Positions 713-54,112 are shown, counted from the first letter of the stretch. The stretch: 64,000 nt of DNA from Candidatus Parcubacteria bacterium (GCA_963718875.1 OY970378.1:1075691-1139690); one strand, 5' to 3'. The notes: generated from the letters alone by a model not told the origin. Translations and numbers: made by a program.

Positions 713-715
713 TCT

Positions 716-4860: not shown

Positions 4861-4863
4861 TTG

Positions 4864-7204: not shown

Positions 7205-7317
7205 ACCCTACAACCTAAGCTAGCAAGGTTCGTTCACTTTTTTCACCTAGTAACTCAATTACTCCTGGTATCAGAAAATGACTAGTACAAGTCATTTTTT
7301 AATTTCGCAGGATTACT

Positions 7318-7560: not shown

Positions 7561-7795
7561 TATGCAATTAACCGACTCTGACATTTTGGAGTTTAAAGAG
7601 CTTGCTAAGAAGCACCTCGGCGTAGATCTAACGTGGGAGGCCGCACAAGATCAAGCCATAAAGCTTGTCCGGCTAATGCAAATTGTTCACCGACCATTGA
7701 GCGTCGAGGATTATGAAGCTATTCGCCTAAAAGACGGCTTTAGCCGCAATAAAAATGAGAACGAATATGAGCCAAGCGGATCAAAAGAGATTTAA
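7550..7795 (+). CDS. hypothetical small acidic protein
   Basis: ORF overlapping its neighbours by a few codons, operon-like arrangement. Confidence 0.3.
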   Translation: MAADMQLTDSDILEFKELAKKHLGVDLTWEAAQDQAIKLVRLMQIVHRPLSVEDYEAIRLKDGFSRNKNENEYEPSGSKEI

Positions 7796-8276
7796 TAAGT
7801 ACTTCCGGCAAAAGGGCATTCTCTACCAGCCGGGCTACGCCATTATTTTTGGCAACCTAAATGCCGGTATCTTGCTAAGCCAGCTCCTATATTGGCACGG
7901 AAAGGGTAAAGACAGGGAGGGCTGGATTTACAAAACTGCCGAGGGTTGGAGGAAAGAAACTGGGCTTACCCGGTATGAGCTAGAAACTGCAAGACGTACT
8001 CTAATTAAGCACAGCATTCTCGACTACAAGCGATCGGGAAACCCCTGCACAAGCCACTATCGACTTAACCTTCTAAAGCTAGAAGAGGCACTTCCTAGTT
8101 TGCTGGAAACCAACAATCTGGTTTATCTGAAACCACCCGACAGTATTTCGGCAAAACCGCAAACTCTTATTTCAGAGAGTACCCAAAAGACTACGACAAA
8201 AAGTACTCCGCCGATTAATAAATCCAATTATAAAAAACAACGGACTGCATTACTTGATATGAAAGGTTTTCCCTAG
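7767..8276 (+). CDS. phage-type replication initiator / DnaD-like winged-HTH protein
   Basis: GWRKETGLTRYELETARRTLIKHSIL resembles replisome-organiser N-terminal wHTH. Start at second ATG. Confidence 0.35.
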   Translation: MSQADQKRFNKYFRQKGILYQPGYAIIFGNLNAGILLSQLLYWHGKGKDREGWIYKTAEGWRKETGLTRYELETARRTLIKHSILDYKRSGNPCTSHYRLNLLKLEEALPSLLETNNLVYLKPPDSISAKPQTLISESTQKTTTKSTPPINKSNYKKQRTALLDMKGFP

Positions 8277-8334
8277 CTAGAGATCACTATTCAAAGCACT
8301 AACAATATTGTGTAATATATAAGGAGTAATGACT

Positions 8335-9954
8335 ATGCAAAGCCAAAATCTAAAATATTTCCTCTACGCTCGTAAGTCCTCCGAGGACGAGGACAGACAA
8401 ATTCAGTCAATCGACGACCAAGTTAATTGGTTAATACAAAAAGCCAATCAAACAGGAGTTGTTCTAAAGAAAAATCAGATCTTTACAGAGGCTAAATCGG
8501 CTAAGAAGCCGAATAATCGGCCCGTGTTCGCCGAAATGCTAGCCCGGATCGAAAAGGGCGAAGCAAATGCCCTACTAGTTTGGGACATTTCTCGCTTATC
8601 GAGAAACCCGATCGATAGTGCGGCGATACAATGGCTGCTCCAAGAAGGTAAGCTACGGTTAATCCATACGCACACACGAGAGTACCGCCCAGAGGATAAT
8701 ACGCTTCTATATAGCGTCGAGAGCGGTATGGCCAATCAGTACATTATCGAGTTACGTGCGAATACACAGCGAGGGATCAATAGTAAGCTTGAAAAGGGCT
8801 GGAAGCCTGGTTTAGCTCCCGTTGGCTACATAAACAACCCCGATCCCGACGAACGCAAGGGTGAAAAAACAATAATCCCCGATCCGGAGCGGTTCGATAT
8901 AGTGCGGAAAGCCTGGGATTTAATGCTTACCGGCAATTACAATCCCCGCCAAATACACCAAATAGCTACAGAGGAATGGCATTTAACTACCAAGGAGCGA
9001 AAAACGAAGCGTGGCAAGGTAGCGATTAGCCGCACGATCTCTCACAACGGCACATACCGTCTACTAACTAATATATTCTACGCAAAGGTAATTGATTATG
9101 GTGGCAAAATATATGAGGGGAGCCATAAGCCAATGATCACAATGGCGGAGTTTGACCGGGTACAAATGTTACTCGGAGCTAAGGGTCGCCCTCGCCCCCA
9201 GTCCCGTGAGCATTCTTATACGGGCAGCATTACCTGCGGCGAATGCTCGGCTCAAGTAACGGCCGAAACCAAGACCAAGTTCGTGAAAAAGACCGGTCAG
9301 CTCAAGGATTACGTCTATTACCGCTGTACCCACCGTAAGACCGGCGTGCCGTGCAAACAGCGGCCGATCCGCCTGGAAGACCTAGAGCCACAAATGGACG
9401 CACAACTACGGCAATTTACGATCCTACCGGTATTTCGGGACTGGGCATTAGAAAAGCTGAACCGGTCTAATGACCAAGAGATCGTAGATCGTACAAAAGT
9501 CCAAGAGTCGCTTACTAAGGCTCTGGACGACAATCAACAGCAGCTAGATAACCTGACTAAAATGCGTTACAGGGATATGATCGACGACGACGAGTTCAAA
9601 AAGGAAAAGAAGGCCCTCCAAACGGAGCTAGCTAGGCTTCAACAAGAGCGGGACGGCAATGAGGGGCGAGCTAGGAACTGGCTTAAGCTCACGGAGGATA
9701 CCTTCAAGTTCGCTTGCTACGCCCAACGATCGTTTATGTTTGGCGACGTTAGAACTAAGCGGGAAATCTTCGCCGCTCTCGGTAAGGGTGCGACGCTAAA
9801 AGACGGCGTGCTAACAATCACTCCTCATAAATGGTTTCAACCGATCGTCGAAAATTACGCCGAATTAGAAGCTGCGTATGAGGAGGTTAGAACTAAAAAA
9901 ACAGCCAATCTCAATCGAGAAATGGCTGTTTTGATAAATAATTGGGGCGAGTGA
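8335..9954 (+). CDS. large serine recombinase (integrase)
   Basis: N-terminal resolvase catalytic domain (YARKSSEDEDRQ, catalytic Ser), recombinase domain, Cys-rich zinc ribbon (CGEC...C) and C-terminal coiled coil. AAGGAG RBS. 3' end overlaps tRNA-His. Confidence 0.85.
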   Translation: MQSQNLKYFLYARKSSEDEDRQIQSIDDQVNWLIQKANQTGVVLKKNQIFTEAKSAKKPNNRPVFAEMLARIEKGEANALLVWDISRLSRNPIDSAAIQWLLQEGKLRLIHTHTREYRPEDNTLLYSVESGMANQYIIELRANTQRGINSKLEKGWKPGLAPVGYINNPDPDERKGEKTIIPDPERFDIVRKAWDLMLTGNYNPRQIHQIATEEWHLTTKERKTKRGKVAISRTISHNGTYRLLTNIFYAKVIDYGGKIYEGSHKPMITMAEFDRVQMLLGAKGRPRPQSREHSYTGSITCGECSAQVTAETKTKFVKKTGQLKDYVYYRCTHRKTGVPCKQRPIRLEDLEPQMDAQLRQFTILPVFRDWALEKLNRSNDQEIVDRTKVQESLTKALDDNQQQLDNLTKMRYRDMIDDDEFKKEKKALQTELARLQQERDGNEGRARNWLKLTEDTFKFACYAQRSFMFGDVRTKREIFAALGKGATLKDGVLTITPHKWFQPIVENYAELEAAYEEVRTKKTANLNREMAVLINNWGE

Positions 9955-10020
9955 TGGGGCTCGAACCCACGACATTCTGCTCCACAAGCAGACGCTCTAA
10001 CCAACTGAGCTACACCCGCC
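9943..10020 (-). tRNA. tRNA-His (GTG) with genomically encoded G-1 and CCA
   Basis: Manual fold: 7-bp acceptor stem with G-1:C73, D-arm TAGCTCAGTTGG, anticodon loop ttGTGga, T-arm GTGGGTTCGAGCCCCAT, CCA at 9943-9945. Confidence 0.9.
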
Positions 10021-10287: not shown

Positions 10288-10784
10288 ATATTCCTAACCA
10301 AAGCCGACGCAAAGGTCGGCTCCCCGACAACTATAGCTCGTCGGGGCTGAGCTACAACCGCCATATAAGTTTCATTTGTATAAGTTTCGAATTACATTTG
10401 TACTTGACAGCATGAAAATTGAAAATTGATTAAATGATACTTGCATTCTGGTGGAGGCAATCCCGCAAGCGGGACGGCCCCCGAACTAATTTCAATTCGT
10501 TGTTTCAAATTCAAATCAGATCGGGTATATTTTAGAGCTCTTTCAAAATCCCTCCGTCCTGCAAACCCGTTTGTAGGGCAATCTACTGATTTTTTACTTC
10601 TCAAGGTAGCACTATGGCTATCTCTCAAACTAAGAAAATCACTATATTACTCCTAAAACGGGTTTTCGGATTTCGAATGGGTTTTGAAAGGGCTTTATTA
10701 CATTTTACCTGTAACCTATGACATTTGACACTTCTTCTAATGGCTAAAAGCCATGAGCAATCCGTCAGCTGACGGAGAGTCGAA

Positions 10785-12688: not shown

Positions 12689-13927
12689 ATGAAATTTCGT
12701 TCAAAATATTGGTTACTGGCCGCAGCATTACTGATTAACTTTCTACCTCTTAACTTTGCTGGCAACAATACTGCACTAGCAGAAAGCAACATCTGTCCCC
12801 TAGCGGGTGACCCACCCATAATGAGTGCTTACAGAACTGCAGAACGTCCCAACCACAAGGGTCTTGATTTGGATGTTCCTGAAGGTACAGCAATTTATGC
12901 AGTTGAGAGCGGCAGCGTTGAAGCGCCTCCGTATGATGACGGTGGTTATGGCGTGTGGCTAATTTTGTCGAGTGGAAATTATACGTTTCGCTACGGGCAT
13001 ATTGGTCAAATAGTCAAAACCGGCTCAGTTAACGCTGGGGACGTTATTGCCTATTCCGACACTAGCGGGAATGCTTCTGCACCTCATCTGCACTGGGAAG
13101 TGCGTAACCCCGTGAACGATATTGATCCAACACCGTTTTGGAATTCTTGCACTGAGCCGGGAGGCGGAGGTGGATCCACTCCAACCGCTCCTCCAGTAAC
13201 TTCACCACCAACTACAGCACCTGTAATAAACCCTGTCCCCGTTACAAACCCTACTCCGGTAAGCTCGGATAGCAGCTGCCACGCCCAGGTCTTGCGCCAA
13301 GGTACCTCTAGCGACTGCGTGACCCACCTTCAGAACCACTTGAACGGCTATGGCTACGGTATTCCTACCACCGGTTATTTTGGTACTATTACTTTCAACT
13401 CAGTCTGTGACTTTCAAAACAAGCACGGCTTATCTCCGTGTGATGGTGTGGTAGGCCCAAACACTTGGAATGCTCTGCATAGCGGCTCTGGTGCGTCAGC
13501 GCCTGTTCAGACAACTCAACCATCGAATCCAACTGTAAGCTCAAACTCTGGGCAAATCGTAAACGAGTATAACGGGTTATGTTTAGATGTACCGGGAGCC
13601 GATTTTAGCAACATGGTTTTTGTGCAGCTGTACGGCTGCAATGGAACTGCTGCCCAAAGATGGACACTAGCATCGAATGGCTCGCTTCAAACAGCCAACA
13701 ACATGTGCTTGGACGTTCGAGATGGCGATACTAGCAATGGCAAGCGTGTGCAAATTTATTCTTGCCTAAATAACGCCAACCAACAATGGCAGCGGCGGTC
13801 AGACCAAACAATTCGGCCAAATATTAATACCAATAAATGCTTGGAGGATTACGGCTTTGGTACCGGTGACGGTGCAATAGTAGCTTTATGGGACTGTAAC
13901 GGTGGGAGTAACCAAAAATGGCGATGA
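12689..13927 (+). CDS. secreted M23 (LytM) peptidase with peptidoglycan-binding domain and C-terminal ricin-B (QxW) lectin domain
   Basis: Signal peptide. HKGLDLDVPEGTAIYAVESGSV...PHLHWEV is the M23 motif set. A PG_binding_1-like segment follows. QxW repeats: AAQRW, NQQWQ, NQKWR. Confidence 0.8.
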   Translation: MKFRSKYWLLAAALLINFLPLNFAGNNTALAESNICPLAGDPPIMSAYRTAERPNHKGLDLDVPEGTAIYAVESGSVEAPPYDDGGYGVWLILSSGNYTFRYGHIGQIVKTGSVNAGDVIAYSDTSGNASAPHLHWEVRNPVNDIDPTPFWNSCTEPGGGGGSTPTAPPVTSPPTTAPVINPVPVTNPTPVSSDSSCHAQVLRQGTSSDCVTHLQNHLNGYGYGIPTTGYFGTITFNSVCDFQNKHGLSPCDGVVGPNTWNALHSGSGASAPVQTTQPSNPTVSSNSGQIVNEYNGLCLDVPGADFSNMVFVQLYGCNGTAAQRWTLASNGSLQTANNMCLDVRDGDTSNGKRVQIYSCLNNANQQWQRRSDQTIRPNINTNKCLEDYGFGTGDGAIVALWDCNGGSNQKWR

Positions 13928-20968: not shown

Positions 20969-21051
20969 TCTACCTATTTTAGTTCTCGTTGTCATCTCGA
21001 GCCTGTCGAGAGATGACAGGTGGTTAATACAAAGTTTTTATGGCGAGGCAT

Positions 21052-21540
21052 CTATCCTCTTGGCTTGGTAATGTTGGCCTCGGCGCCGTAGAATGGCATG
21101 ACGATGCCGGTAAAAATATTTGATTGTAATTTCCCAGTTCCCCACTCCAACCAATCTTCGCCGGTGGCTCCGACAATTGGTTTGTTTAGCACGAAAGCGG
21201 CTGTGTTTGCTACCGTTATGCCGATACGAAGGCCGGTAAAAGAACCCGGGCCTTCATAAACAACAATGCCTGAGAGATTTTGCCAAGTTAGATCATTGCG
21301 ATCCAAAAGTTCGTGGATTTTTGACAGCAATGTAGCCGACAGTTGGCGGCCGGCAGTCCAAACTATTTGATCGCTTAGTTTGCCATCATCGGATGCCAAC
21401 ACGAGACATGCCTCGGCGGTTTCGGTGCGGATACCTAGAAGAACTTTTGACCCTTCGACTCGGCTCAGGGTTGGCTTTTGAGCTTTGAGTGTTAACACAG
21501 AATTATTAATATCAAGCTTTTGATTGCTTGCTTTAACCAT
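21052..21540 (-). CDS. tsaB: tRNA threonylcarbamoyladenosine biosynthesis protein TsaB
   Basis: GPGSFTGLRIG motif. Confidence 0.8.
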   Translation of the reverse strand: MVKASNQKLDINNSVLTLKAQKPTLSRVEGSKVLLGIRTETAEACLVLASDDGKLSDQIVWTAGRQLSATLLSKIHELLDRNDLTWQNLSGIVVYEGPGSFTGLRIGITVANTAAFVLNKPIVGATGEDWLEWGTGKLQSNIFTGIVMPFYGAEANITKPRG

Positions 21541-22000
21541 TGTTTAAACTTTCAATGACGTAGTTAAATTTTGAATCAAGCGCGGTTACTTTAATGTGCC
21601 GTGTATTTTCGTCAACTGCTTCTATATCGATGCGAATGCGAGCGGAAGGCATGGCAGTGCCGGCGTTACCCGCCCACTCTACCGCCACAATTACGCTTGG
21701 ATCTCCAACTACTTCAGCCAGCTCTGTAGCGACAATGTCGTCGGAATCAATGCGGTAAAAGTCAAAATGATGCAGCTCCAGGTCATCCCGAACGTGGTAT
21801 ACCCGACTAATGGTAAAGGTTGGGCTTGTAACTTCACCATTATAGTCCAATCCAACAGCCACCCCTTTGACAAGCACGGTCTTGCCACCACCAAGATCGC
21901 TAGCGAGCTCGATTGTCTCGCCGCCTTGAAGGGCTTTACCGAGAGATTCCCCGAGCTTTAAGGTAGCGTTTAGTGATGTGGTAATAGTTTCGTACATCAT
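21533..22000 (-). CDS. tsaE: tRNA threonylcarbamoyladenosine biosynthesis ATPase TsaE
   Basis: SDLGGGKTVLVKG...VTSPTFTI P-loop pattern. Confidence 0.75.
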   Translation of the reverse strand: MMYETITTSLNATLKLGESLGKALQGGETIELASDLGGGKTVLVKGVAVGLDYNGEVTSPTFTISRVYHVRDDLELHHFDFYRIDSDDIVATELAEVVGDPSVIVAVEWAGNAGTAMPSARIRIDIEAVDENTRHIKVTALDSKFNYVIESLNNG

Positions 22001-23339
22001 GGCGGAATTCATAGATTGCGTATCCTATACTAAGCATGGCCAGCCCAATTAGCAACCATGTACCGGAATAATTATTTGCCGATGCTACTAAGGCGGTTTG
22101 GGGTGTGGTTGTCGATTTTTTAGCTTTGGAGGTTTTGGGCTTAGTTGCTTTGGGGACTTTAGGCTTAGCAGCTTTTGTGGTTTTTGTCGTAGACTTGGGT
22201 GTTGAAGTAGCCTTAGCTTTTGTAGTGGAGGCAACGGTTTTGGCTTTTGGAGTTGCAGCAGTTTTTAAGGCAACTGCAGGCACTACCAAAATATTGTCCG
22301 CCCCAGGAGTAGCCTGCATACTCCACCTCCATTCACCGTCGACTAATGACCAGCTTTGCCCGGTAGCGGCTTTGCCATAATCACCGGTTGTACCAACAAT
22401 GTTACCGGCTGGATCAAGTACTTGAGCCGATCCGCCTGCGTTGGTAAGCCCCACATGACTTTGGTTAGAGTAAACGGCTAGGTACGCTCCAGGGGCAATA
22501 ATTACATCTGGTAGATTGTAAAATGAATGAAAATTACTCCCTGCTCGAATTGTGTAGCCTTCAATATTAACGGGATCGGCATTGGGGTTATATAGCTCGA
22601 TAAACTCATTGTGAGCATCGGTTTGAGGTGAAGCTGGGTCGGGCACAAGTTCTGTAATCATTAGCGCTGCGTAAACTGTAGGGGCAGGAGCGGGTTGATC
22701 GTCGACTGGTGGATCTTCGATAGTAACCGGGGAGGTGATAGAAGGATCTTCTAAAACTGCAGTGGTCGACTGGGGTTGTGGGGTGCTTCGTATAACAAAG
22801 TCCTCGGTATTATTATCAGTATCGGTGGAGTTACCACCATCTTCGATCAATCGGCCGGGCAGACGTTCGATGCTCTCCTCTGTTGCAGGAGCCTCCACCG
22901 GAGTGGTTTCGGCCGCGTTGGCAGTCGTGCCCCATCCAACCAGATCAACCACTGCGTTACTCTGATCCTTGAGCCGCACGTGGCCGCCAGTACCAGAGAG
23001 ACCGGCCGTGGAAAGATCGGCATCGGCAGTAGATAAGTAGATCTTTTGGCTTATGAGATAAAACCCGTGCGACTTAACCACACCCGTCAGAGTTGCTCGC
23101 TTTGACCATGAGTTTTCAGCAAGTGCAGATGTAGCGGACTTATATTGCAACACCCATCCATCTACAGATATGTCGCTTGTAGTGGGGTTATAAAGCTCAA
23201 CAAACTCTTGGCCAGAACTTGTAGCTGAACCGGTTTGAATTTCGCTGATAACAAGGGATGTGCTGGCAGATTGAACACTGAGTGGCTTAATTACTAGCAA
23301 TAAAAGTAGACATAATGGAAGGGCTTTAAAGCGCGACAT
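21936..23339 (-). CDS. surface protein with two lamin-tail (LTD) domains, Lys/Thr-rich stalk and C-terminal TM anchor
   Basis: Signal peptide. Two ISEIQ/ITELVP...EF[VI]ELYNP...GW/GY LTD-like repeats. KTTK-rich region. Hydrophobic C-terminus. The stop overlaps tsaE by ~65 nt. Confidence 0.65.
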   Translation of the reverse strand: MSRFKALPLCLLLLLVIKPLSVQSASTSLVISEIQTGSATSSGQEFVELYNPTTSDISVDGWVLQYKSATSALAENSWSKRATLTGVVKSHGFYLISQKIYLSTADADLSTAGLSGTGGHVRLKDQSNAVVDLVGWGTTANAAETTPVEAPATEESIERLPGRLIEDGGNSTDTDNNTEDFVIRSTPQPQSTTAVLEDPSITSPVTIEDPPVDDQPAPAPTVYAALMITELVPDPASPQTDAHNEFIELYNPNADPVNIEGYTIRAGSNFHSFYNLPDVIIAPGAYLAVYSNQSHVGLTNAGGSAQVLDPAGNIVGTTGDYGKAATGQSWSLVDGEWRWSMQATPGADNILVVPAVALKTAATPKAKTVASTTKAKATSTPKSTTKTTKAAKPKVPKATKPKTSKAKKSTTTPQTALVASANNYSGTWLLIGLAMLSIGYAIYEFRHDVRNYYHITKRYLKARGISR

Positions 23340-41666: not shown

Positions 41667-43355
41667 GTGAACATGACCAATCAAAACCTTAATTCGCTCT
41701 CCAATCCTGTCCCAAAGTTAACCCCCCAACATCCAATCGCATTTTTTAGTGCCGAATACGCGATAGAAAACAGCCTGCCAATTTACGCTGGAGGCCTTGG
41801 CGTGCTGGCTGGCGACATGGTGCTTGAAGCGCAAGCCGAAAACCTGCCTTTTGTGGCATTTGGAGTCCTATATTCCTACGGCTTTGATACTGCCGGCCAG
41901 AAAAATGGCCGTTTAGACCCTGTGACCGCTGGCTTTTCACTGATAGTGGATGGAGATGAAACCTTAACTGTAGAGGTGCCCTGTAACGACCATTTGGTAT
42001 TAGTGCAGGCTTGGCAAAAAGATTATGGCTCGGCTAAATTAATTTTGCTCGATACCGACCATCCTCGTAATAACACCGAGGATCGCCAGTTAACAGCGCA
42101 TCTGTATGACCCGAATATTATAACTAGGACGTGCCAGGAGTGGGTGGTGGGCCTAGCAGCTGGACAATTTATGCGTAAGCTCGGTATAACCCCGGCAGTA
42201 CATCATATTAATGAAGGTCATACGGCTTTTGTTATTGTGGGTCTGGTTCTAGATTATCTGCAAAATAATTTACATTCCAGTTTTGAAGAGGCGAGAGAAG
42301 TAGTGAGGCAGCAGGTGGTTGCTAGCAAACACACCATTCTGCCGGGCGCAGGATTGTTTATAGACCGCTTGGTGCTGCGCTCGATTGCTGGAGCCGCGCT
42401 TCATAACGTAAATTTTGACGACTTATTTGCGCTCGGCACGACCCCTGGCCGACCAGATCATTTCTCTACGACCAAATTCATTTTAGCCCATGCCCGCGCC
42501 GTCAGTGGCGTAAGCAAGCTCCATGTAGCGCGCGAAAAAGCCGACCACCCCACTAGCAAACTAATTCCAGTAACAAATGGGGTGGCCAGTCAAAGATGGT
42601 TGGCACAGAACTTTCGCGAGCGCCCGCATACCGAGTTATCCGACAATGAATTATGGAAATTGCACACTAGTAACCGTAGCGACCTCACGGCCATGGTGAA
42701 TGATACTGTTGGCAGCCGCTTAGACCCAAACTTCCTAACTGTGGTGTGGGCAAGGCGAATTACAGCCTATAAGCGTCCGGCGCTATTGTTTAACAACCTC
42801 GAGCGGCTGGAGCGCTTGGTAAGCTCTACTAAAATACCGGTGCAATTCATTATTGCGGGCAAGGCCAACACTGAAGATACCGAGGCAAGACGGATTTTAG
42901 AAGAAATATTAAAAAATTGCCGTTTGCCAAAATTAGAAGGGCGAGTTGTATATTTACCCGGTTATTCCGTACGCACCACCCAGGCCTTGTCCGCTGGAGC
43001 CGACCTTTGGTTAAATACTCCCATTCGAGGGCAAGAGGCCTGTGGTACTAGCGGGATGAAGGCTAGCCTTAACGGTGCATTGCAGCTTTCTACCAGCGAC
43101 GGATGGATTGATGAAGTGTCGGCCGACTGTATTGGATGGAAACTGCCTGAAGAAGGTATTGAAAGCGCCCTTTATGACACATTAGAAAATAAGATTGCGC
43201 CGACTTTTTACGATTGCAACAAGGATGGTGTCCCAGAGCAGTGGGTCCGCCGCATGCGAGATACAATGACTTTGATTGAAAATGACTTTACAGCCAAACG
43301 CATGCTCCATGATTACATGACTAGGCTGTATTTTTCTAGCGCTCAAGGACTTTGA
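41667..43355 (+). CDS. glgP: alpha-glucan phosphorylase (GT35, short GlgP-like form)
   Basis: FSAEYAIENSLPIYAGGLGVLAGD N-terminal motif. Confidence 0.8.
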   Translation: MNMTNQNLNSLSNPVPKLTPQHPIAFFSAEYAIENSLPIYAGGLGVLAGDMVLEAQAENLPFVAFGVLYSYGFDTAGQKNGRLDPVTAGFSLIVDGDETLTVEVPCNDHLVLVQAWQKDYGSAKLILLDTDHPRNNTEDRQLTAHLYDPNIITRTCQEWVVGLAAGQFMRKLGITPAVHHINEGHTAFVIVGLVLDYLQNNLHSSFEEAREVVRQQVVASKHTILPGAGLFIDRLVLRSIAGAALHNVNFDDLFALGTTPGRPDHFSTTKFILAHARAVSGVSKLHVAREKADHPTSKLIPVTNGVASQRWLAQNFRERPHTELSDNELWKLHTSNRSDLTAMVNDTVGSRLDPNFLTVVWARRITAYKRPALLFNNLERLERLVSSTKIPVQFIIAGKANTEDTEARRILEEILKNCRLPKLEGRVVYLPGYSVRTTQALSAGADLWLNTPIRGQEACGTSGMKASLNGALQLSTSDGWIDEVSADCIGWKLPEEGIESALYDTLENKIAPTFYDCNKDGVPEQWVRRMRDTMTLIENDFTAKRMLHDYMTRLYFSSAQGL

Positions 43356-43362
43356 AATTAAT

Positions 43363-43977
43363 ATGACTCCAGACACGCCCTTTTCGCCAGACTCTCCCGA
43401 TGCAGAGGACCTTTTACTGGAAGGTACTGATACGGGTGAGCGTCGTGAAAAAATTGCATTCAATGGCACTATCAGACCTATTGCTCCTGGGGACACTGAT
43501 CAGATTAGGCCTATTTTAGAAGAGTTGGTGCGAGATAGCGAGACTGGACAGCCAATAAGAGATGAGATAGAACGCTACATTCAGGCAATGGAAGAAAGCG
43601 CTCAAGGTAACAGCGACCGCATTTTCATGGTGGCTCAATCTGGCGAGGGCCAAACTGTGGGAGTTATGGGACTTGCAAGCCCAGATGAAGAACTGAGACA
43701 TTACGCTGAAACGGATTTGCCGATTGAAGCTATTAATGCGTATGTGACGGGTAGCCATCGTGATAGAGGTATCGGTAAACTTTTATACTATGCTTTAGAA
43801 GAAAAGGTACGTCTGATGGGATTTACTGAAGTTTTGGTAGGTAGTGGCCCACGTTACGAGAAGCTTGGGTATCCTTTTTGGATAAGTTTGTTTGGTCAGC
43901 CTATAGCGATTATAAAAAATAAGTACGGTCCGGGACAGGATGCTCCAGTGTGGCGCAAAAGCCTAATCGAAAATTAA
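43363..43977 (+). CDS. GNAT family N-acetyltransferase
   Basis: RDRGIGKLL acetyl-CoA-binding motif A. Confidence 0.65.
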   Translation: MTPDTPFSPDSPDAEDLLLEGTDTGERREKIAFNGTIRPIAPGDTDQIRPILEELVRDSETGQPIRDEIERYIQAMEESAQGNSDRIFMVAQSGEGQTVGVMGLASPDEELRHYAETDLPIEAINAYVTGSHRDRGIGKLLYYALEEKVRLMGFTEVLVGSGPRYEKLGYPFWISLFGQPIAIIKNKYGPGQDAPVWRKSLIEN

Positions 43978-44015
43978 AGGGAGCCTCCCTTGAAGTTGTT
44001 ATGTTTAATGATCAT
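43974..44015 (+). repeat. REP-like palindromic element copy 1 (AAGGGAGCCTCCCTT + GAAGTTGTTATG)
   Basis: Palindrome immediately after the GNAT stop. Same consensus as 45651, 50036 and 50694. Confidence 0.45.
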
Positions 44016-44029
44016 GTTAAAATAGCTTC

Positions 44030-44347
44030 ATGGATCAAATGCAGCTTATAAAAGACCTTGGTATTGAAGGACTCGACGAGAAACATCAGCAGCAGTTACT
44101 AGCCAGTTTTGCCGACTTGGTGCAACTACGTATGACCGAAAAATTAAATGCTTACCTGGATGACGCTGCCTTAACCGAGTTAGATGACTTGGCCGAACAA
44201 CAAAAAGGCGATGAAGCTTTGGCAAGCCTTGAACAATATGTTCCCAATTATCAAACTATTCTTGCAGAAACAATCGAGGAGACTAAAGTAGAGCTAAAGC
44301 AAGACGCCCAAGCTGTGCTTCAACGCGTAAATAGACCAACGTCCTAA
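44030..44347 (+). CDS. hypothetical acidic protein
   Basis: 105-aa ORF. Confidence 0.4.
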   Translation: MDQMQLIKDLGIEGLDEKHQQQLLASFADLVQLRMTEKLNAYLDDAALTELDDLAEQQKGDEALASLEQYVPNYQTILAETIEETKVELKQDAQAVLQRVNRPTS

Positions 44348-45654
44348 TGGGCGCTGACACTTTACCAGCCTCGCCTGAAGCAGACGGTGAATTTCGCTCA
44401 GCCTTGAATGTGGCTGACTTATTGGGCGAAAGAACACCAAATGATTTGTCTGGTTTGCCAGAATCGACTTTGACCGATACTTCTCCTGACCGCAGTGATC
44501 ACGCACCATCTGCAGAGGACTTTGCAGATCTACCACCTATACAGAGTTGGGGTGATGCCGTGCGTGAGAGCGACGCACTGAACGCCAAATATACCGACAG
44601 CGACGGTCGTCATCTACCAATGACTCCAGAGGATGCCAGGCGCCACATGCAGCTGATTGTCTATCGCGGTGACTACAATAGCGCCTATCACGAAACGGCC
44701 GACCGCCTACACGATGAACTTGATGACGCCAGAGAAGCGTTTCTTCAGGCACGAGTCAAGGGACATACTAACGAAGAAAAGGAAGCTACCCAAAAAGCTT
44801 ACAAAGCTAAGCTCTTTGAACTTATTGGATCTGATATTAAATACCAAACCGGAGAAACTGCCAGGCCAGAGCTTTCTACCGTCATAGGGACTCTCATAAC
44901 TGAGGCTCAAAAACGCGAAGAACGGATTACGGAGATGCGCGCCGGAACAGTAGGCGGTAAATTTCGAAAGTTTTTCCGTAACCACCCGGGAATATTAATG
45001 GGTACGGCGGTAGCTGCCTTCGGGGGAAGTTTACTGACTGCCAAAACTGGTATATTACCAGAAGTAGCTACCGATACAGCCAACTATATAGCCACGTTTA
45101 TGGTGGGGGTAGCTGGATATGCATCTACGCGCGATTCTATGGCGGCAGTGCTGGCAAGACGCGTGCAGAAACAAGATAGTGAAATAACTGCCACCCGGGA
45201 AGAGGCTTTTTATGGTGACGAGAGCGCCGTCTCTCGTTATATTGATCAGCGACAAGTAAGTTCTTTGCCTGATCTTCAAAAGCAAACCGCTAGTGACGAC
45301 CCAGATCAAAACAGAAAAACCGTTAAGTGGCTTGAAAAAGCTAGGGATTTGCATTACGACAAAGACGATGCCGATGAGGCTCAAATGCTACGGGCCAACT
45401 CGGAAGATCTGCTGTCGAACAATGGGCTCGTTGAACTACTTAAAAGCCAACCTGAATCCGCCCAAACTTATGAAGTTTTGGCTCGGTTAATTGAACGACA
45501 AGTAGACGAAGCGGGCAAAAAAATTGATCAAAGCCGTCGACATACGCGAATATCAAAGCTCGTTGGGGCAACTGCTGGCGTCGCAACCCTTGGAATGACG
45601 TCGTTATTCGGGTATCAACGCATAGACGCTCCAAGCACTACCTCAAATGATTAA
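44347..45654 (+). CDS. hypothetical protein with acidic N-terminal region and central TM segments
   Basis: 435-aa ORF. No motif recognised. Confidence 0.45.
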   Translation: MGADTLPASPEADGEFRSALNVADLLGERTPNDLSGLPESTLTDTSPDRSDHAPSAEDFADLPPIQSWGDAVRESDALNAKYTDSDGRHLPMTPEDARRHMQLIVYRGDYNSAYHETADRLHDELDDAREAFLQARVKGHTNEEKEATQKAYKAKLFELIGSDIKYQTGETARPELSTVIGTLITEAQKREERITEMRAGTVGGKFRKFFRNHPGILMGTAVAAFGGSLLTAKTGILPEVATDTANYIATFMVGVAGYASTRDSMAAVLARRVQKQDSEITATREEAFYGDESAVSRYIDQRQVSSLPDLQKQTASDDPDQNRKTVKWLEKARDLHYDKDDADEAQMLRANSEDLLSNNGLVELLKSQPESAQTYEVLARLIERQVDEAGKKIDQSRRHTRISKLVGATAGVATLGMTSLFGYQRIDAPSTTSND

Positions 45655-45690
45655 GAGGGAGCTTCCCTCGAATTTGTTATGGTTAATGAC
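45651..45690 (+). repeat. REP-like palindromic element copy 2 (GAGGGAGCTTCCCTC + GAATTTGTTATG)
   Basis: Directly after the stop of 44347..45654. Confidence 0.45.
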
Positions 45691-45731
45691 TTGCGCTACA
45701 TCTGGATATTTGGTAACTTAAAGTACAAGTT

Positions 45732-46844
45732 ATGAGCAAACGTTTGACTAAACCAGTTGAAACCAAAAAAAACGTTAAGGGTCGTCCCGAAAGGGGCGAT
45801 TTTTTTAAAATCAGCCCGAGCGAGTTAGTGCTGTCCGACGGGGCGCGCTTTAATGGATTTTCGCCGATTTGGCAGTCCGAGAAGTACGAAGGAGAGGTGG
45901 TCTTTAACACCGGCATGACCGGATATGTCGAGTCTTTAACTGATCCGTCCTATTCCGGTCAAATACTGGTCTTTACCTATCCATTGATTGGAAATTACGG
46001 AGCTTTGTCGAATTCTAGTTGGGAGTCAGATAAAATTTATGCAGCCGGTGTGGTAGTAAGTGAGGCTTGTACAAACTGGAGCCACAGCGCTAGCCAGAGT
46101 TCGCTATTGGAATGGTTGCAGCAACAAAATATCCCAATAATAACGGGGATTGATACGCGGGAGTTGACAAAACATTTGCGCTCACGCGGGACTATGTCCG
46201 GTGTCATTACCGATAAGATCGGTTCGGCCGCGCCATTAAACAATTTAAAGACCGTTAAGGTTAAGCTCCAACCGCCCAAAGTTTATAACGAGCATGAGTC
46301 AAAACTGGTAATCGTTGTTGATTGCGGTATGAAACAAAATATTTTGAGATCCTTACTCGCCCTTCCCTTGCAGGTAAAGCGCGTCGCTTATAACTATGAC
46401 TACAGCGGTGAAAGTTATGATGGGCTGTTGATATCTAATGGACCCGGAGACCCAACTGATTACCCCGAAACAATTGCTATCGCAGCTAAGGCTATGAAGC
46501 TTGGCCGGCCCATGTTTGGCATATGCTTAGGAACACAAATAATGGGGCTGGCGGCAGGAGCGCAAACTTATAAGCTGCCTTTTGGGCATCGTGGGCACAA
46601 CCAACCTTGTATTGAGCCTGAAAATGGGCGTTGTGTAATAACCAGTCAGAACCACGGATATGCCATAGACGAAACTACTTTGCCTAAGGGGTGGAAGGTT
46701 ATTTTTCGAAATCTCAATGACGGCTCCGTGGAAGGGATTGCTCACAATACCAAGCCATTTTGGTCGGTTCAATTCCACCCTGAAGCGACACCAGGTCCAA
46801 CCGATACCAAAGGGCTATTTGAGAGGTTTTACGCGAGCCTATGA
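45732..46844 (+). CDS. carA: carbamoyl-phosphate synthase small (glutaminase) subunit
   Basis: GICLGTQ catalytic Cys, HRGHNQP. Confidence 0.9.
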   Translation: MSKRLTKPVETKKNVKGRPERGDFFKISPSELVLSDGARFNGFSPIWQSEKYEGEVVFNTGMTGYVESLTDPSYSGQILVFTYPLIGNYGALSNSSWESDKIYAAGVVVSEACTNWSHSASQSSLLEWLQQQNIPIITGIDTRELTKHLRSRGTMSGVITDKIGSAAPLNNLKTVKVKLQPPKVYNEHESKLVIVVDCGMKQNILRSLLALPLQVKRVAYNYDYSGESYDGLLISNGPGDPTDYPETIAIAAKAMKLGRPMFGICLGTQIMGLAAGAQTYKLPFGHRGHNQPCIEPENGRCVITSQNHGYAIDETTLPKGWKVIFRNLNDGSVEGIAHNTKPFWSVQFHPEATPGPTDTKGLFERFYASL

Positions 46845-49800
46845 GCAAGCCTAAGCAAACTAAAATACTTATACTTGGATCGGGCGGCTTGCGCATTGGA
46901 CAGGCAGGTGAATTTGATTATTCTGGATCCCAAGCCATAAAAGCCCTCAAGGAAGAGGGCATCTATACTGTGTTGATAAACCCAAATGTAGCCACCGTCC
47001 AAACGGATGGAGACATGGCCGATAGGGTCTATTTTCAGCCGCTCAATACGGCGACGGTCACAAAAATTATCAAGCGAGAACGTCCAACTGCTATTTTCCT
47101 AAGTTTTGGTGGTCAAACCGCCCTCAACCTTGGACTAGCGCTAAACGACGATGGAACGCTCGCAAAATACAAAGTTGAGGTACTCGGTACGCCGGTAAAA
47201 GTCATTAAGACCACCGAAGACAGGGAGTTATTTAAAAAAGCATTGTCCCAGATTAATGTTAAAACTGCCAATAGTTTGGCGGTGTACTCTGTGGCAGAGG
47301 CACTAAGCGCTGCCAAAAAAATTGGCTACCCAGTAATGATGCGGTCTGGATACAGCCTAGGCGGTCTGGGGTCAGGACGGGTAGAAACAGCTGGGGAACT
47401 CAAGACCAAAACTGCCGAAGCATTTCAGGCTGTGCCCCAAATATTAATTGAAGAATATTTGGGAGGATGGAAAGAGGTGGAATACGAGGTAGTTAGGGAT
47501 GCAGGTGGTAATGCTATAACCGTATGCAACATGGAAAACTTGGATCCTATGGGTATCCATACCGGAGAAAGCATTGTGGTGGCACCGTCACAAACTTTGA
47601 CCAATGAAGAATACCACCGCTTGCGGGAAATTGCCATCAAGACCATTTCACACCTGGGGATTATTGGTGAATGCAACATCCAATATGCGCTGAATCCAAT
47701 TAGTGGCGACTATCGGGTTATTGAGGTTAATGCCCGCCTCAGCCGCTCGAGCGCTTTAGCCTCCAAAGCTACCGGATACCCGCTGGCACATGTGGCGACC
47801 AAGCTAATGTTGGGTCAGCTGTTAAACGAAATTAAAAATTCTGTTACCGGTTCCACGCCAGCTTTTTTTGAGCCAGCTTTGGACTACATTGCAGTCAAAA
47901 TGCCGCGCTGGGACCTAGATAAGCTCAAATCGAGTAGTCATAGATTAGGTTCTGAAATGAAAAGCGTAGGGGAGGTCATGGCCCTCGGGCGTTCTTTCCC
48001 AGAGGCTTTGCAAAAAGCCATTCGAATGCTTGGCATTGGCGCAGATGGACTATCTTATAATCCTCATAAATTCCTTAAACCCATTGATGAAGTCCAGCAG
48101 GCTACGGATAGGCGCTTGTTTGCTGTATACGAGCTGTTTAAACGCGGTCACGACGTGGAAGAACTTCACCGAATGTCCTCTATTGACCGGTGGTTTTTAC
48201 ATCACATTAAGTCAATTCAGGAATTGGAGAAGGAATTAGGCGCTTCCCCGCTGTCACGCGACCGTTTGCTTCAAGCTAAAAAAATGGGGTTTTCAGATAA
48301 GTCTCTGGCTAGATTGCAGGGTACAACCGAACCTGTTATTCGAGCACGACGTAAAAAGCTTGGGATTACGCCGGTTATAAAGCAAATTGACACATTGGCA
48401 GGAGAGTTTGATGCTGAAACCAATTATCTTTATGCGACTTATCATGGTTCTAGTACGGACGTCAAACCACTTAGCAAAAAACCGGTAATCGTTTTGGGGT
48501 CTGGCCCATACTGCATTGGCTCATCGGTTGAGTTTGACTGGTGCGCTGTCAATACCGCTAAAACATTGCGACAGCAGAACCGTCCTACAATTATCATTAA
48601 CTCTAATCCTGAAACGGTTTCGACAGATTTTGACCATTCTGATAGATTGTATTTTGAAGAGTTGACATTAGAGAGGGTGCAAGACATTGCGGAATTTGAG
48701 TCTGGTGCAAGTATTGTAGTGTCAGTTGGAGGCCAAATTGCGAATAACTTGGCGTTGCCTCTGAATAAGGCCGGTTTTAGTATTTTGGGAACTGCAGCAG
48801 AATCAATCGACCAAGCGGAGGATCGAAAAAAGTTTTCATCAATGCTAAACCGTCTTGGGGTTGACCAGCCAGAATGGGAAGAGGTGACAACCTATGCGAA
48901 TGCCAAAAAATTTGCGAAAAAAGTAGGTTATCCCGTGTTGATTCGTCCTTCATACGTTTTGTCTGGCGGAGCCATGAACGTTGTAACGGACGAATTTGAG
49001 CTTAAGCATTATTTGGAGGCGGCAACTCACCTTTCCCCAGATCATCCGGTAGTATTGTCGCAGTTTATTACTAATGCCAAAGAGCTAGAAGTTGATGGAG
49101 TAGCCGATAATGGCCAAGTAGTGATTTATGCGATCAGTGAGCATGTGGAAAACGCTGGCATTCATTCTGGAGATGCCACAGTAGTGTTGCCGCCTCAGCG
49201 GTTGTACCTGGAAACGATTCGTCGCAGTAAAAGCATTACTAAGCAAATTGTTAAGACTCTCGGTATTACTGGTCCTTTTAATATCCAGTTTATTGCTAAG
49301 GATAACGATATAAAAGTTATTGAGTGCAACGTCCGGGCCTCCCGTTCATTCCCTTTTGTTTCTAAAGTAACCAACCATAACTTCATTGCCATCGCTACTA
49401 TGACTATGCTTGGCAAGGCGCCGAGGGCAGAGTATCAAACTTTGGAGCTTGATTATGTCGGCGTAAAAAGTCCGCAATTTTCGTACAACCGCCTTAAAGG
49501 AGCCGACCCAGTGGCGGGAGTGGAAATGGCCTCTACTGGCGAGGTGGCATGCTTGGGAAGTGACCTTGTGGAAGCATTTTACGCCTCTTGGCTTGCTACC
49601 GAGCAAAGCGTACGTGGTAAAAGTCTGTTTGTTAGTATTGGCGGGGATCATAAGCACAAGCTGATTGATGAAATCCAAAAACTTCATGGGTTGGGTTGGA
49701 AATTATCTGCCACTGAAGGAACGCGAGATTATTTGAAGGTTCGCGGCGTCCCTTCCAAGTGTCTTTACAAGCTGAGCGAGCAGGTTGAGCCAAGTGTGGC

Positions 49801-50023
49801 GACGGCTATTTTAAAACGTAAACTTGATCTAATCATAAGCATTCCATCAGGCACGGATACCAACAAAGACGGATTTGAAATGAGGCGCCTCGCAATAGAC
49901 AACCACATACCTCTGGTAACTAACGCGGAAATTGCCAAGTTATTATTGCGTTGCTTAGCCGAAGTTGATCTCAATAAACTTGAACCAAGATCGTGGCAGG
50001 AGTTTATGGAAGCACGAGATTAA
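46841..50023 (+). CDS. carB: carbamoyl-phosphate synthase large subunit
   Basis: 1060 aa, two ATP-grasp halves, MGS-like C-terminus. Confidence 0.95.
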   Translation: MSKPKQTKILILGSGGLRIGQAGEFDYSGSQAIKALKEEGIYTVLINPNVATVQTDGDMADRVYFQPLNTATVTKIIKRERPTAIFLSFGGQTALNLGLALNDDGTLAKYKVEVLGTPVKVIKTTEDRELFKKALSQINVKTANSLAVYSVAEALSAAKKIGYPVMMRSGYSLGGLGSGRVETAGELKTKTAEAFQAVPQILIEEYLGGWKEVEYEVVRDAGGNAITVCNMENLDPMGIHTGESIVVAPSQTLTNEEYHRLREIAIKTISHLGIIGECNIQYALNPISGDYRVIEVNARLSRSSALASKATGYPLAHVATKLMLGQLLNEIKNSVTGSTPAFFEPALDYIAVKMPRWDLDKLKSSSHRLGSEMKSVGEVMALGRSFPEALQKAIRMLGIGADGLSYNPHKFLKPIDEVQQATDRRLFAVYELFKRGHDVEELHRMSSIDRWFLHHIKSIQELEKELGASPLSRDRLLQAKKMGFSDKSLARLQGTTEPVIRARRKKLGITPVIKQIDTLAGEFDAETNYLYATYHGSSTDVKPLSKKPVIVLGSGPYCIGSSVEFDWCAVNTAKTLRQQNRPTIIINSNPETVSTDFDHSDRLYFEELTLERVQDIAEFESGASIVVSVGGQIANNLALPLNKAGFSILGTAAESIDQAEDRKKFSSMLNRLGVDQPEWEEVTTYANAKKFAKKVGYPVLIRPSYVLSGGAMNVVTDEFELKHYLEAATHLSPDHPVVLSQFITNAKELEVDGVADNGQVVIYAISEHVENAGIHSGDATVVLPPQRLYLETIRRSKSITKQIVKTLGITGPFNIQFIAKDNDIKVIECNVRASRSFPFVSKVTNHNFIAIATMTMLGKAPRAEYQTLELDYVGVKSPQFSYNRLKGADPVAGVEMASTGEVACLGSDLVEAFYASWLATEQSVRGKSLFVSIGGDHKHKLIDEIQKLHGLGWKLSATEGTRDYLKVRGVPSKCLYKLSEQVEPSVATAILKRKLDLIISIPSGTDTNKDGFEMRRLAIDNHIPLVTNAEIAKLLLRCLAEVDLNKLEPRSWQEFMEARD

Positions 50024-50029
50024 CGATAA

Positions 50030-50066
50030 GCACTTAAAGGGAGGCTCCCTCTAAGCACTTAAGCTT
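50030..50066 (+). repeat. REP-like palindromic element copy 3 (AAGGGAGGCTCCCTCT) immediately upstream of the Y1-transposase-like gene
   Basis: Same GGGAG..CTCCC palindrome. The tail differs: TAAGCACTTAA direct repeat on both sides. Confidence 0.35.
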
Positions 50067-50098
50067 GCTTAGGCGAACAAAAACCGTACAATGATTTT

Positions 50099-50725
50099 AT
50101 GCCAAGGATCAATGCCGTAAAACCCTATATCGAAAACACCTACTACCATGTATACAACCGTGGAGTAGATAAGGAATTGATATATATTGATGATCAGGAT
50201 TACCATTACTTTATTCGCCTGTTAAATTTCTACTTGACTCCAGCTAAGTTTGAAGCGGAAACCTTATTTCGAAATCGATCGTGGAGATCAATAGAAAATG
50301 ATTTATCAATGGACGTAAAGCTTATATCCTATTGTTTGATGCCAAATCATTTTCATCTTCTACTCAAGCAACTACCCAATGATGGCCTAACTAAATTAAT
50401 GAAACGAGTTAGTGCGTCTTACGCCCTTTATTTCAATCTCAAGCATCAAAGAGTTGGACATTTGTTTGAGTCGAGCTGCAAAGCCAGGGCTATTTTCAAT
50501 GATGAGGATTTTATTGGGACCAACGCATACGTTCATCGAAACGCAAAAGATATTATGTACGACTACACTAAGTACCCTTACTCAAATCTGAAAGATATTA
50601 TTACGATGACAAAAAATTCTTGGACGAGTCCAACAGAGTTGCTTGAATTCTTTAACGGCGATCCCGTTAATTATCGTGATTACGTTTTAGTTGAGAGGGA
50701 GGCTCCCTTGAAATTGTTATGCTAA
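50099..50725 (+). CDS. HUH Y1 transposase-like protein (IS200-like; possibly REP-associated tyrosine transposase, RAYT)
   Basis: YHVYNRG near the N-terminus, HuH motif LMPNHFHLLL, conserved Tyr region NAYVHRN. Flanked by REP-like palindromes. Confidence 0.55.
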   Translation: MPRINAVKPYIENTYYHVYNRGVDKELIYIDDQDYHYFIRLLNFYLTPAKFEAETLFRNRSWRSIENDLSMDVKLISYCLMPNHFHLLLKQLPNDGLTKLMKRVSASYALYFNLKHQRVGHLFESSCKARAIFNDEDFIGTNAYVHRNAKDIMYDYTKYPYSNLKDIITMTKNSWTSPTELLEFFNGDPVNYRDYVLVEREAPLKLLC

Positions 50726-50730
50726 GCGGA
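50694..50730 (+). repeat. REP-like palindromic element copy 4 (GAGGGAGGCTCCCTT + GAAATTGTTATG) overlapping the 3' end of the transposase-like ORF
   Basis: Consensus shared with copies 1 and 2. Confidence 0.45.
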
Positions 50731-51193
50731 TTTGACTAGAGTGGGTGATGGCAATAGCGAGGGCGTCGGCGGCGTCATCGGGTTTTGGTATAGTGTTCAG
50801 GCCTAGCAAGCTTTTGACCATTTCCTGGATTTGATGTTTGTCTGCCTTGCCGTACCCTGTAACGGCCTGCTTGACTTGCAATGGAGTATATTCGGCAATA
50901 GGTAAATTAGCTTGGGCCGCCACTAGAATTGCCACTCCCCTTGCCTGGCCTACTGTCATGGCAGTGGTTACATTTGTAGCAAAATACAGCAGTTCAATGG
51001 CTACGACGTTGGGTTTATGCTCTGATATTAACTCCCCGAGCTCATCGTAAATCGTTATTAAGCGGTCCTTCATGTCGACATCCGATTTTGTGGTAATAAC
51101 GCCAGCATCGATAAACTTCAGTTTCCCTCTCTCTATATCAATAACGCCAAAACCGGTGGTGGCGGTGCCGGGGTCAATGCCAAGTATTCTCAC
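50717..51193 (-). CDS. ruvC: crossover junction endodeoxyribonuclease RuvC
   Basis: MRILGIDPGTATTGFGVI. Confidence 0.9.
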   Translation of the reverse strand: MRILGIDPGTATTGFGVIDIERGKLKFIDAGVITTKSDVDMKDRLITIYDELGELISEHKPNVVAIELLYFATNVTTAMTVGQARGVAILVAAQANLPIAEYTPLQVKQAVTGYGKADKHQIQEMVKSLLGLNTIPKPDDAADALAIAITHSSQIRLA

Positions 51194-51687
51194 TAGACCT
51201 TACCGAAATTGATACTGCCACCGTTTAGTAGCTCTAGCCCGCGCTTAACTACCGCTATTTCTGGGTCATCGGCTGGTCTAGATACGAACATATCGCTAAT
51301 GTTGGCAGGCCCAACCCAGATATACTCGGAATGATCGTTAGGATCCAACTTGAGCTGGTCGATCGGCTCGACAAAAGTAGAAAAATAATCTACTTCTATA
51401 GTATGTTCACCTTTTTCTTCATAAACATACGTAAAAGCAGCGAATGGATCGCTCACAACAATGTGCATTCCAAACTCTTCCATAATCTCACGCTTGAGGC
51501 CTTCGACGATGTCTTCACCTACCTCAATATGTCCTCCAGGTAATTCATATACACCTGGCAAAAACTTCTTTGTAGCTGCCCGCTTAGCCAAAAAGACTTT
51601 TTCAACTCCATCAAAACTTTGATGGATAAAAGCACAGGCTGTTATCACTTGATGAATCTTGATAGATGTTTCGGCTTCGCTCAACAT
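51193..51687 (-). CDS. NUDIX hydrolase
   Basis: Nudix box GGHIEVGEDIVEGLKREIMEEFG. Confidence 0.7.
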   Translation of the reverse strand: MLSEAETSIKIHQVITACAFIHQSFDGVEKVFLAKRAATKKFLPGVYELPGGHIEVGEDIVEGLKREIMEEFGMHIVVSDPFAAFTYVYEEKGEHTIEVDYFSTFVEPIDQLKLDPNDHSEYIWVGPANISDMFVSRPADDPEIAVVKRGLELLNGGSINFGKV

Positions 51688-53943: not shown

Positions 53944-54112
53944 AATGAGGGCTCCAAGCCCTCATTAAATATTGGTCTTATTGTGTCATGGAACTAGTTA
54001 GAATTTCAAGCTAAATTTAGTTTAGTCAGCTTTGTACATTATATGACAACGTCCTCTAGCCGAACCCTAAGGATCCAGCTAGAGGACGTTTGAGCAGAAC
54101 GAGGCGATGTGG

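Follow-up and report, generated by a model that had tools for sequence, protein, structure and literature searches.

A Y1 HUH gene bracketed by cognate palindromes in a Candidatus Parcubacteria genome: a probable REPtron/TIRtron-type locus

Introduction

Is the transposase-like gene that lies between carB and ruvC in a Candidatus Parcubacteria bacterium a mobile element, or is it a resident gene that has been kept together with the palindromes on either side of it? We addressed this question for a 64,000-nucleotide (nt) stretch of DNA (GCA_963718875.1 OY970378.1:1075691-1139690; hereafter the window, 64 kb of a 1.19-Mb Patescibacteria genome of Saccharimonadales type), in which an open reading frame (ORF) at 50099-50725 encodes a small protein of the Y1 HUH class. 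A sequence-only reading of the window had proposed an IS200-like transposase gene flanked by repetitive extragenic palindromic (REP)-like elements, with two further copies upstream, and had likened the arrangement to a REPtron or to the REP doublets forming hairpins known as REPINs. The analysis presented here indicates that the locus is probably of the REPtron/TIRtron type (TIR, terminal inverted repeat), that is, a domesticated, single-copy Y1 HUH gene bracketed by cognate palindromes.

This kind of system is already known from REPtrons, TIRtrons and domesticated REP-associated tyrosine transposases (RAYTs), and a member in Patescibacteria would, to judge from sequence comparison, be new. 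Full-text literature searches turned up no account of a REP/RAYT system from Patescibacteria, and the sole paper naming RAYT and the candidate phyla radiation together reported a KEGG K07491 match in an archaeon. The host role of domesticated transposases of the RAYT type is an open question in the field. A streamlined genome of ~1.2 Mb that keeps such a gene under housekeeping-like purifying selection, with a handful of repeats, bears on that question; as the gene-hairpin module recurs across Patescibacteria, the phylum offers a minimal setting in which to study the purpose of a RAYT-like protein without a large REP population.

Results

The ORF between carB and ruvC encodes a Y1 HUH protein

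The ORF at 50099-50725 (+ strand) encodes a Y1 HUH protein of 208 amino acids (aa), which on its Pfam match, motifs and fold is RAYT/TIRYT-like (TIRYT, TIR-associated tyrosine transposase; TnpAY1 class 2). The profile search bore out the proposed similarity to the Y1 HUH domain, as Pfam Y1_Tnp (PF01797) was matched at 31 bits relative to a cut-off of 23 (E = 3e-07); nothing but Y1_Tnp was returned by Pfam at E ≤ 1, and thus no C-terminal domain resembling a helix-turn-helix (HTH), such as Bac_DnaA_C, HTH_23 or HTH_28. Both of the motifs that had been read from the sequence, HFHLL and YHVYNRG, are carried by the ORF. When the window protein was aligned with 33 homologues (34 sequences), H84, H86, Y144, H146, N148 and S162 were invariant; in the window protein these residues form the motifs H84-F-H86, Y144-V-H-R-N148 and S162, and Y144 lies in helix 135-151 of an AlphaFold model (predicted local distance difference test, pLDDT, 87.9). 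The best Foldseek match in the Protein Data Bank (PDB) was 4ER8, the E. coli TnpAREP protein bound to a REP hairpin, followed by the IS608, ISDra2 and IS200 transposases (top matches 4ER8, 2A6M, 2VJV and 2XO6, all at a probability of 1.00). Searches of PDB by sequence, with the single protein and with the family profile, were marginal (ISDra2 at E 0.9 and 0.013; 4ER8 at 0.5).

Among NCBIfam families, REP_Tyr_transpos was the only one matched by all 34 aligned members (best E = 6e-15). The Y1 protein had no match in PADLOC or PHROGs, and no other ORF of the window was Y1-like. Annotations of homologues read 'transposase', assigned to Saccharimonadales or Patescibacteria; with phmmer the protein matched 14,579 cluster representatives (clustering at 50% identity) at E ≤ 1e-3 and 4,253 at E ≤ 1e-10.

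Four copies of a palindromic element lie at gene 3' ends

Direct reading of the window, to which the copy counts for these elements refer, located four palindrome-centred copies (c1–c4) at 43978, 45656, 50038 and 50696, including the two outside the Y1 locus that had been noticed before. The palindrome was thus present at all four sites, with a core of GGGAG-N-CTCCC and a centre of one base; the two-base centre that had been claimed did not hold, the pattern GGGAG-NN-CTCCC having zero exact matches in the window. The 11-mer GGGAGNCTCCC occurred exactly at 43979, 50039 and 50697 and with one mismatch at 45657 (GGGAGCTTCCC); at ≤ 1 mismatch it gave 6 matches relative to 1.08 expected, a count that 0 of 100 shuffles reached. 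A 26-nt motif, AGGGAGSYTCCCTYGAANTTGTTATG, was found three times (43978, 45656 and 50696), always on the + strand and with 0 expected, and the tail that three copies were said to share was recovered as GAANTTGTTATG, also with 0 expected by chance.

All four copies were confirmed to lie at gene 3' ends (those of a GNAT gene, a 435-aa ORF, carB and Y1/ruvC). The two dispersed copies, both on the + strand, are c1 (43974-44011), which starts 1 nt past the stop codon of the GNAT gene and has its core at 43978-43990 and its tail, GAAGTTGTTATG, running to 44003 and followed by TTTAATGA, and c2 (45651-45689), which starts 2 nt past the stop of the 435-aa ORF, upstream of carA, and has the core AGGGAGCTTCCCT at 45656-45668 and a tail to 45681, followed by GTTAATGA. 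The other two bracket the Y1 gene, as had been proposed, and present the identical 13-mer AGGGAGGCTCCCT on both sides, 49 nt before the ATG (50038) and within the last 10 codons (50696). The left palindrome, c3 (50024-50064, no strand assigned), begins immediately 3' of the carB stop codon and is a two-armed imperfect copy with its core at 50038-50050. The right element, c4 (50691-50724, +; core 50696-50708, tail TGAAATTGTTATG to 50721), supplies the codons for the C-terminal Y1 residues REAPLKLLC, and it includes the minus-strand stop codon of ruvC, which converges on the Y1 gene.

The full repeat is a palindrome of ~41-43 bp, CCATAACAAyTTnAAGGGAG-S-CTCCCTTnAArTTGTTATGG. A relative at ~78% protein identity (L002) carries two perfect palindromes, AGCATAACAATTAAGAGGGAG-G-CTCCCTCTTAATTGTTATGCT and CGTAACAACTTAAAGGGAG-G-CTCCCTTTAAGTTGTTACG, with 18-20 predicted pairs per arm and folding energies of -20 to -22 kcal/mol (z -8 to -10), and because these copies are perfect the tail GAANTTGTTATG can be read as the 3' arm of the palindrome. 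In the window, c3 retains both arms imperfectly and folds as single-stranded DNA (ssDNA) with -9.1 kcal/mol, the left palindrome in a second relative (L001) reaching -12; c1, c2 and c4 retain only the GGGAG/CTCCC tip and the 3' arm, with the last codons of an ORF occupying the position of the 5' arm.

An Rfam search of 43300-51300 gave no match. The motif GGGGWSAS was absent from the flanks, which are self-complementary palindromes with a GGGAGSCTCCC core. Inverted doublets of the REPIN type did not occur in the window, where copies are spaced by 658 bp to 4.4 kb. When 185,579 species genomes of GTDB were scanned with the 26-nt motif, there were 0 matches, so that this genome or a near relative is not part of that set; a scan of JGI metagenomes with a relaxed 23-nt motif yielded one, which was uninformative as it lay on a 1.4-kb contig (L083). 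A different small palindrome, GAGGGCTCCAAGCCCTC, lies outside the GGGAGSCTCCC family at window 53946-53962, beside the start of ComEC; it is kept in L001 (~13120-13140) and degenerate in L002.

A conserved block at 50060-50098 (+ strand) adjoins the foot of the left palindrome and leads into the gene. It contains GCTTGC and reads ..TTAAGCTTGC..CGAACAAAAACCGTACAAT, followed after 6-8 nt by the ATG, and it is retained in relatives of 46-79% protein identity in differing genomic contexts; in distant Saccharimonadales homologues it takes the form TATGCTTGC..CGAACA..CGTACAAT, again with 6-8 nt before the ATG. The block contains a TACAAT box resembling a -10 element and looks like a promoter; with the ATG 6 nt past the box and no Shine-Dalgarno sequence, its transcript would have little or no leader. 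A consensus scan did not pick up this block.

The gene and its palindromes are kept in two relatives

The positions of carB, Y1 and ruvC, and the overlap with ruvC, are identical in the window and in the two relatives L001 and L002, whose Y1 proteins show ~78% identity to that of the window. Divergence of the Y1 gene was 0.12-0.15 at nonsynonymous sites (pN) and ~0.85 at synonymous sites (pS), which are thus saturated, and amino acid identity to the relatives was 78% for Y1, compared to 79-80% for RuvC, 82% for YebC and 69-72% for CarA. The Y1 gene evolves like a housekeeping gene under purifying selection and is vertically inherited.

The palindromes are also kept at the nucleotide level, despite the saturation of synonymous sites. 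The spacer between carB and Y1 showed 87% column identity, and c3 was found at the corresponding place in both relatives. Within c4, only 1-3 of 9 third-codon positions differed, relative to 54-59% across the rest of the gene, which indicates that its nucleotides are conserved beyond coding constraint. The 90% identity cluster of the Y1 protein has one member, on one contig, with no copy of ≥ 90% identity on record, and a short-read assembly from the same sample continues straight through the gene; together with the common site in the relatives, these results indicate that the Y1 gene is single-copy and syntenic and is not an active insertion sequence (IS).

Distant homologues share the arrangement

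At least 581 stretches in GTDB species genomes match the Y1 gene. We surveyed 80 loci in GTDB genomes (31-45% best-segment identity), most of them under the labels Microgenomates-group and Saccharibacteria and many under generic names alone, and compared 73 ORFs. A word of ≥ 11 nt was common to both flanks in 66 of the 73, the 95th percentile of controls being 10 nt, and in 46 of the 73 each flank bore a perfect hairpin and the two tips were identical, typically AAGG/AGGG, a loop of 3-5 nt and CCTT/CCCT. This recurrence of gene and flanking hairpin argues for a REPtron-like system rather than coincidence. There were 34 distinct tips, and pairs of loci with the same tip had a mean protein identity of 0.62, compared to 0.45; hairpin and protein co-vary across the family. 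Homologues closer to the window protein in other genomic contexts, namely P0007 (46% identity; L084, at BaxI-Y1-YchF) and P0006 (54%; L088), are likewise flanked by hairpins, with a GGGAGG(C/T)TCCC core and, in L088, in arrays of 2-3. Cognate tips at > 1.5 kb from the gene numbered 21 in 560 kb (~0.04 per kb).

At six loci (L008, L010, L019, L023, L034 and L043), inverted doublets resembling REPINs, with super-palindromes of 13-16 bp, stand on either side of Y1 (for example L008:9954-9985 and 10680-10715; L010:917-950 and 1612-1645). Of the comparison made by the sequence-only reading, the REPtron-like part stood (66 of 73 homologues), and the REPIN-like part found no doublet in the window itself. 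The Y1 ORF itself contained an in-frame copy of its flanking hairpin (≤ 1 mismatch) at 17 of 46 loci (L017:10150 and 10417; L057:10178 and 10456; L062:10450; L069:10177; L076:10174; and 12 more loci), at two recurrent sites, ~aa 50-60 before the HUH motif and ~aa 150-165 immediately following the Y motif. The peptide that such a copy encodes varies among genomes. The window gene has neither internal insertion, only the C-terminal repeat.

Many of the GTDB entries that carry this Patescibacteria-type Y1 family (L003, L004, L008, L014, L016, L017 and others) are titled 'uncultured Gammaproteobacteria/Pseudomonadales', 'Nanoarchaeia' or 'Bathyarchaeia'; these titles could reflect mislabelled bins or a real spread beyond Patescibacteria.

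Copies are gained and lost between lineages

Comparison with L001 and L002 revealed turnover of the dispersed copies. The sole copy upstream of carA in each (L001:4522, L002:5416) is orthologous to c2, and c1 has no orthologous copy in either. Conversely, a perfect palindrome at L002:13492, between the divergently transcribed ComEC and DAGK genes, is absent from the orthologous spacer upstream of ComEC in the window and in L001. As both c1 and the L002:13492 copy are lineage-restricted, copies have been gained or lost between lineages; this turnover, and the presence of at least one copy off any gene 3' end, speak against a role as terminators only.

Between c1 and c2, which have the same orientation, lie two genes (44030-45654, +), one encoding a DUF5663 protein (44030-44347) and the other the 435-aa orphan (44347-45654, +). 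At the orthologous site, L001 and L002 lack these two genes as well as the preceding GNAT gene (43363-43977). A search of 5.8 billion clustered proteins returned the product of the 435-aa ORF itself and no homologue, Pfam gave no match for it, and neither of the two enclosed genes was matched in PADLOC or PHROGs. That they belong to the repeat system is conjecture.

Other features of the window

At window ~170-10000, a cluster of genes for SocA_Panacea, a Z1 domain, an RE_NgoFVII restriction enzyme, a DNA methylase and a serine resolvase was recognised from gene calls on a Logan contig bearing a 138-aa protein identical to that of window 716-1132. Such a gene set suggests a defence or restriction-modification island that may be mobile. 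GC skew turns from negative to positive at window ~21000-22500, where genes for TsaE, a TsaB-like protein, an LTD-domain protein, a member of the aspartate/ornithine carbamoyltransferase family (OTCace) and an ATPase of the type II secretion system/type IV pilus (T2SS/T4P) kind are found; no dnaA-type gene was found there, and the sign change may mark a replication origin or simply a turn in gene orientation.

Discussion

If the locus is of the REPtron/TIRtron type, the Y1 protein would bind the palindrome hairpin on transiently single-stranded DNA, by homology to E. coli TnpAREP and IS608 TnpA, and would cut and rejoin the strand beside the hairpin through Tyr144, with His84, His86 and Asn148 holding a metal ion. 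Over evolutionary time, a few repeat copies would be seeded and removed in this way, mostly at gene 3' ends. Binding, cleavage and a benefit to the host are inferred only, from these better-known proteins. The repeats may also act as RNA hairpins at 3' ends, and the left repeat may contribute to autoregulation of the adjacent promoter-like block.

Several observations weigh against assignment to this type. The RAYT profile search that had been suggested gave 31.5 bits with REP_Tyr_transpos (the RAYT equivalog), short of the cut-off of 80, and the YVHRNA motif of the window protein keeps the Asn of the class signature Y---NP and replaces its Pro by Ala. Neither GTAG nor GTGG was present at the foot of the stem in the copies of the window, L001 or L002; lacking this GT[AG]G foot, the repeats are not canonical REPs. 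As ssDNA, c1, c2 and c4 have weak folds (-3.4 to -5.4 kcal/mol), not exceeding those of shuffled sequences, so that hairpin recognition may be impaired at these copies, or the 3' arm may be read as sequence. All four copies fall within 6.8 kb, the remaining ~57 kb of the window containing no further one, and four clustered copies do not demonstrate a dispersed repeat family, let alone a high-copy REP/REPIN population, in the source genome. The 0 copies outside the cluster place repeat density below roughly 0.05 per kb at 95% (Poisson), which for 1.19 Mb would mean some tens of copies at the very most. The locus is therefore described here as REPtron/TIRtron-like, with repeats that form a family of low copy number.

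A different account would make the palindromes host regulatory elements (bidirectional terminators, stabilisers of mRNA 3' ends, or operators) and the Y1 protein a domesticated DNA/RNA-binding factor that has ceased to move them; the flanking copies would serve only termination and autoregulation of the Y1 gene. We consider this unlikely, even though it fits the location of all four copies at ORF 3' ends, the conservation of copy positions across lineages, the promoter-like block adjoining the left copy, the housekeeping-like evolution of the gene and the match of c1 and c2 to a loose terminator pattern. Terminator-like sites were not enriched in the sequence (7, relative to 8.2 in shuffles) and their T-tracts were poor; copies come and go between lineages, the one at L002:13492 standing between divergent genes; and the alignment shows no variation at the catalytic His, Tyr and Asn positions. 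The in-frame hairpins of relatives, since they encode varying peptides, point to a process at the level of DNA.

It is far less likely that 50024-50724 is an active or recently active insertion of the IS200/IS605 type between carB and ruvC. The Y1_Tnp domain, the hairpins at both ends and the occurrence of a hairpin-bounded module in varying genomic contexts over long time scales are all what such an element would show. However, the NCBIfam model transpos_IS200 gave 16.2 bits, below its cut-off of 55, and the tyrosine motif is Y---N, not the Y---Q of subclass 1.1 (IS200/IS605; PMC6006769), so that in the strict sense the gene, single-copy and syntenic as it is, is not the IS200-like element it was first taken for. 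Moreover, its site is common to three lineages with saturated synonymous sites and a conserved ruvC overlap, its 90% cluster is limited to one member on one contig, there is no tnpB and no second Y1 ORF in the window, and the same hairpin is found at both ends instead of distinct left and right ends. In annotation, genes of this type in Patescibacteria should not be recorded as active IS200 transposases.

Chance resemblance, with short GC-rich palindromes falling by accident close to a Y1 gene, has next to no probability and was rejected: the window stems are short (5-6 bp) and their folding energies unexceptional, but the 26-nt motif in triplicate (0 expected), an 11-mer count never reached in 100 shuffles, conservation of the elements in L001, L002, L084 and L088, and a layout above controls in 66 of 73 distant homologues refute it.

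A broader extension of the REPtron/TIRtron assignment is possible, and we put it forward tentatively, as a reading with less in its favour than against it. In this extension, Patescibacteria would possess, phylum-wide, a system of a housekeeping-like Y1 nuclease of subclass 2.1 signature and its cognate hairpin, which maintains a few genome-specific hairpins, including in-frame copies within the Y1 gene itself, and same-orientation hairpin pairs may carry cargo, the candidate being the DUF5663 gene and orphan segment at 43978-45681. If true, the retention of an ssDNA editing system in streamlined genomes of ~1 Mb would imply a function for the host.

Comparison with known systems

The protein shares with the IS200/IS605 transposases (IS608 and ISDra2 TnpA) the catalytic fold and the chemistry of HUH motif and tyrosine, and their recognition of ssDNA hairpins serves as a mechanistic model. 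Unlike them, the locus is not mobile and multi-copy: it has Y---N, no TnpB, the same hairpin at both ends and a syntenic position.

TIRtrons and their TIRYTs were described by Di Nocera et al. 2013 (PMC3733652), who reported that some TIRs are self-complementary and that some flanking repeats overlap gene ends; both features recur here, in the self-complementary repeats and in c4 at the gene end. The window locus differs from TIRtrons in the lack of GGGGWSAS and of a C-terminal HTH/DnaA_C-like domain detectable with Pfam. TnpAY1 subclass 2.1 (Quentin et al. 2018, PMC6006769) corresponds to RAYT Group 1 (Bertels et al. 2017, PMC5581495) and largely to the TIRYTs; the signature of the subclass comprises NH[YF]H, FQ, Y[IV]HLNP and, in the tail, the motif SS (PMC6006769). 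Compared by motifs only, the family consensus from our alignment (NHFH, LFQ, YIHLNP and YSSY; length ~225 aa, within the ~210-230 aa range of the family) fits all four, the length agreeing with the published table as well, and the window protein, with NHFH, FE, YVHRNA and YSN, is divergent from both consensus and signature. Group 1 genes have flanking 16-mers at ~12 per replicon (PMC5581495), and the flanking repeats here are similarly low-copy or absent elsewhere, a pattern that the density of tips in the relatives (~0.04 per kb) fits. REP-like structures were not seen beside the subclass 2.1 genes surveyed by Quentin et al. (PMC6006769), whereas cognate hairpins flank the window gene and 66 of 73 of its relatives. 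REPtron-like organisation would thereby be extended to proteins of a signature published as REP-less.

In the REPtrons of subclass 2.4, REPs are found in-frame within the tnpAREP gene (Quentin et al., PMC6006769), and this is paralleled by the 17 of 46 relatives with their own hairpin inside the ORF and by the right repeat of the window, which forms the C-terminus of the protein. The two differ in motif signature (WQ and YIxNNP in subclass 2.4) and in the sites of insertion, which in subclass 2.4 fall between HUH and Y and in the relatives precede HUH or directly follow the Y motif.

The REPtron proper is the E. coli TnpAREP/RAYT gene with its flanking REPs or bacterial interspersed mosaic elements (BIMEs), PDB 4ER8 (Nunvar 2010, Ton-Hoang 2012 and Messing 2012, as cited in PMC6006769 and PMC3479197). 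In contrast to it, the window protein falls below the RAYT equivalog cut-off, the palindromes have no GT[AG]G guide at their foot, there are 4 copies in 64 kb, the right repeat is translated as the C-terminus, and the host phylum is Patescibacteria. Like the E. coli REPtron, the locus consists of a Y1 HUH protein, for which the E. coli protein is the best structural match, with Asn in the Y---N position, encoded by a single-copy, vertically inherited gene that has cognate palindromes on either side and more of them at gene 3' ends.

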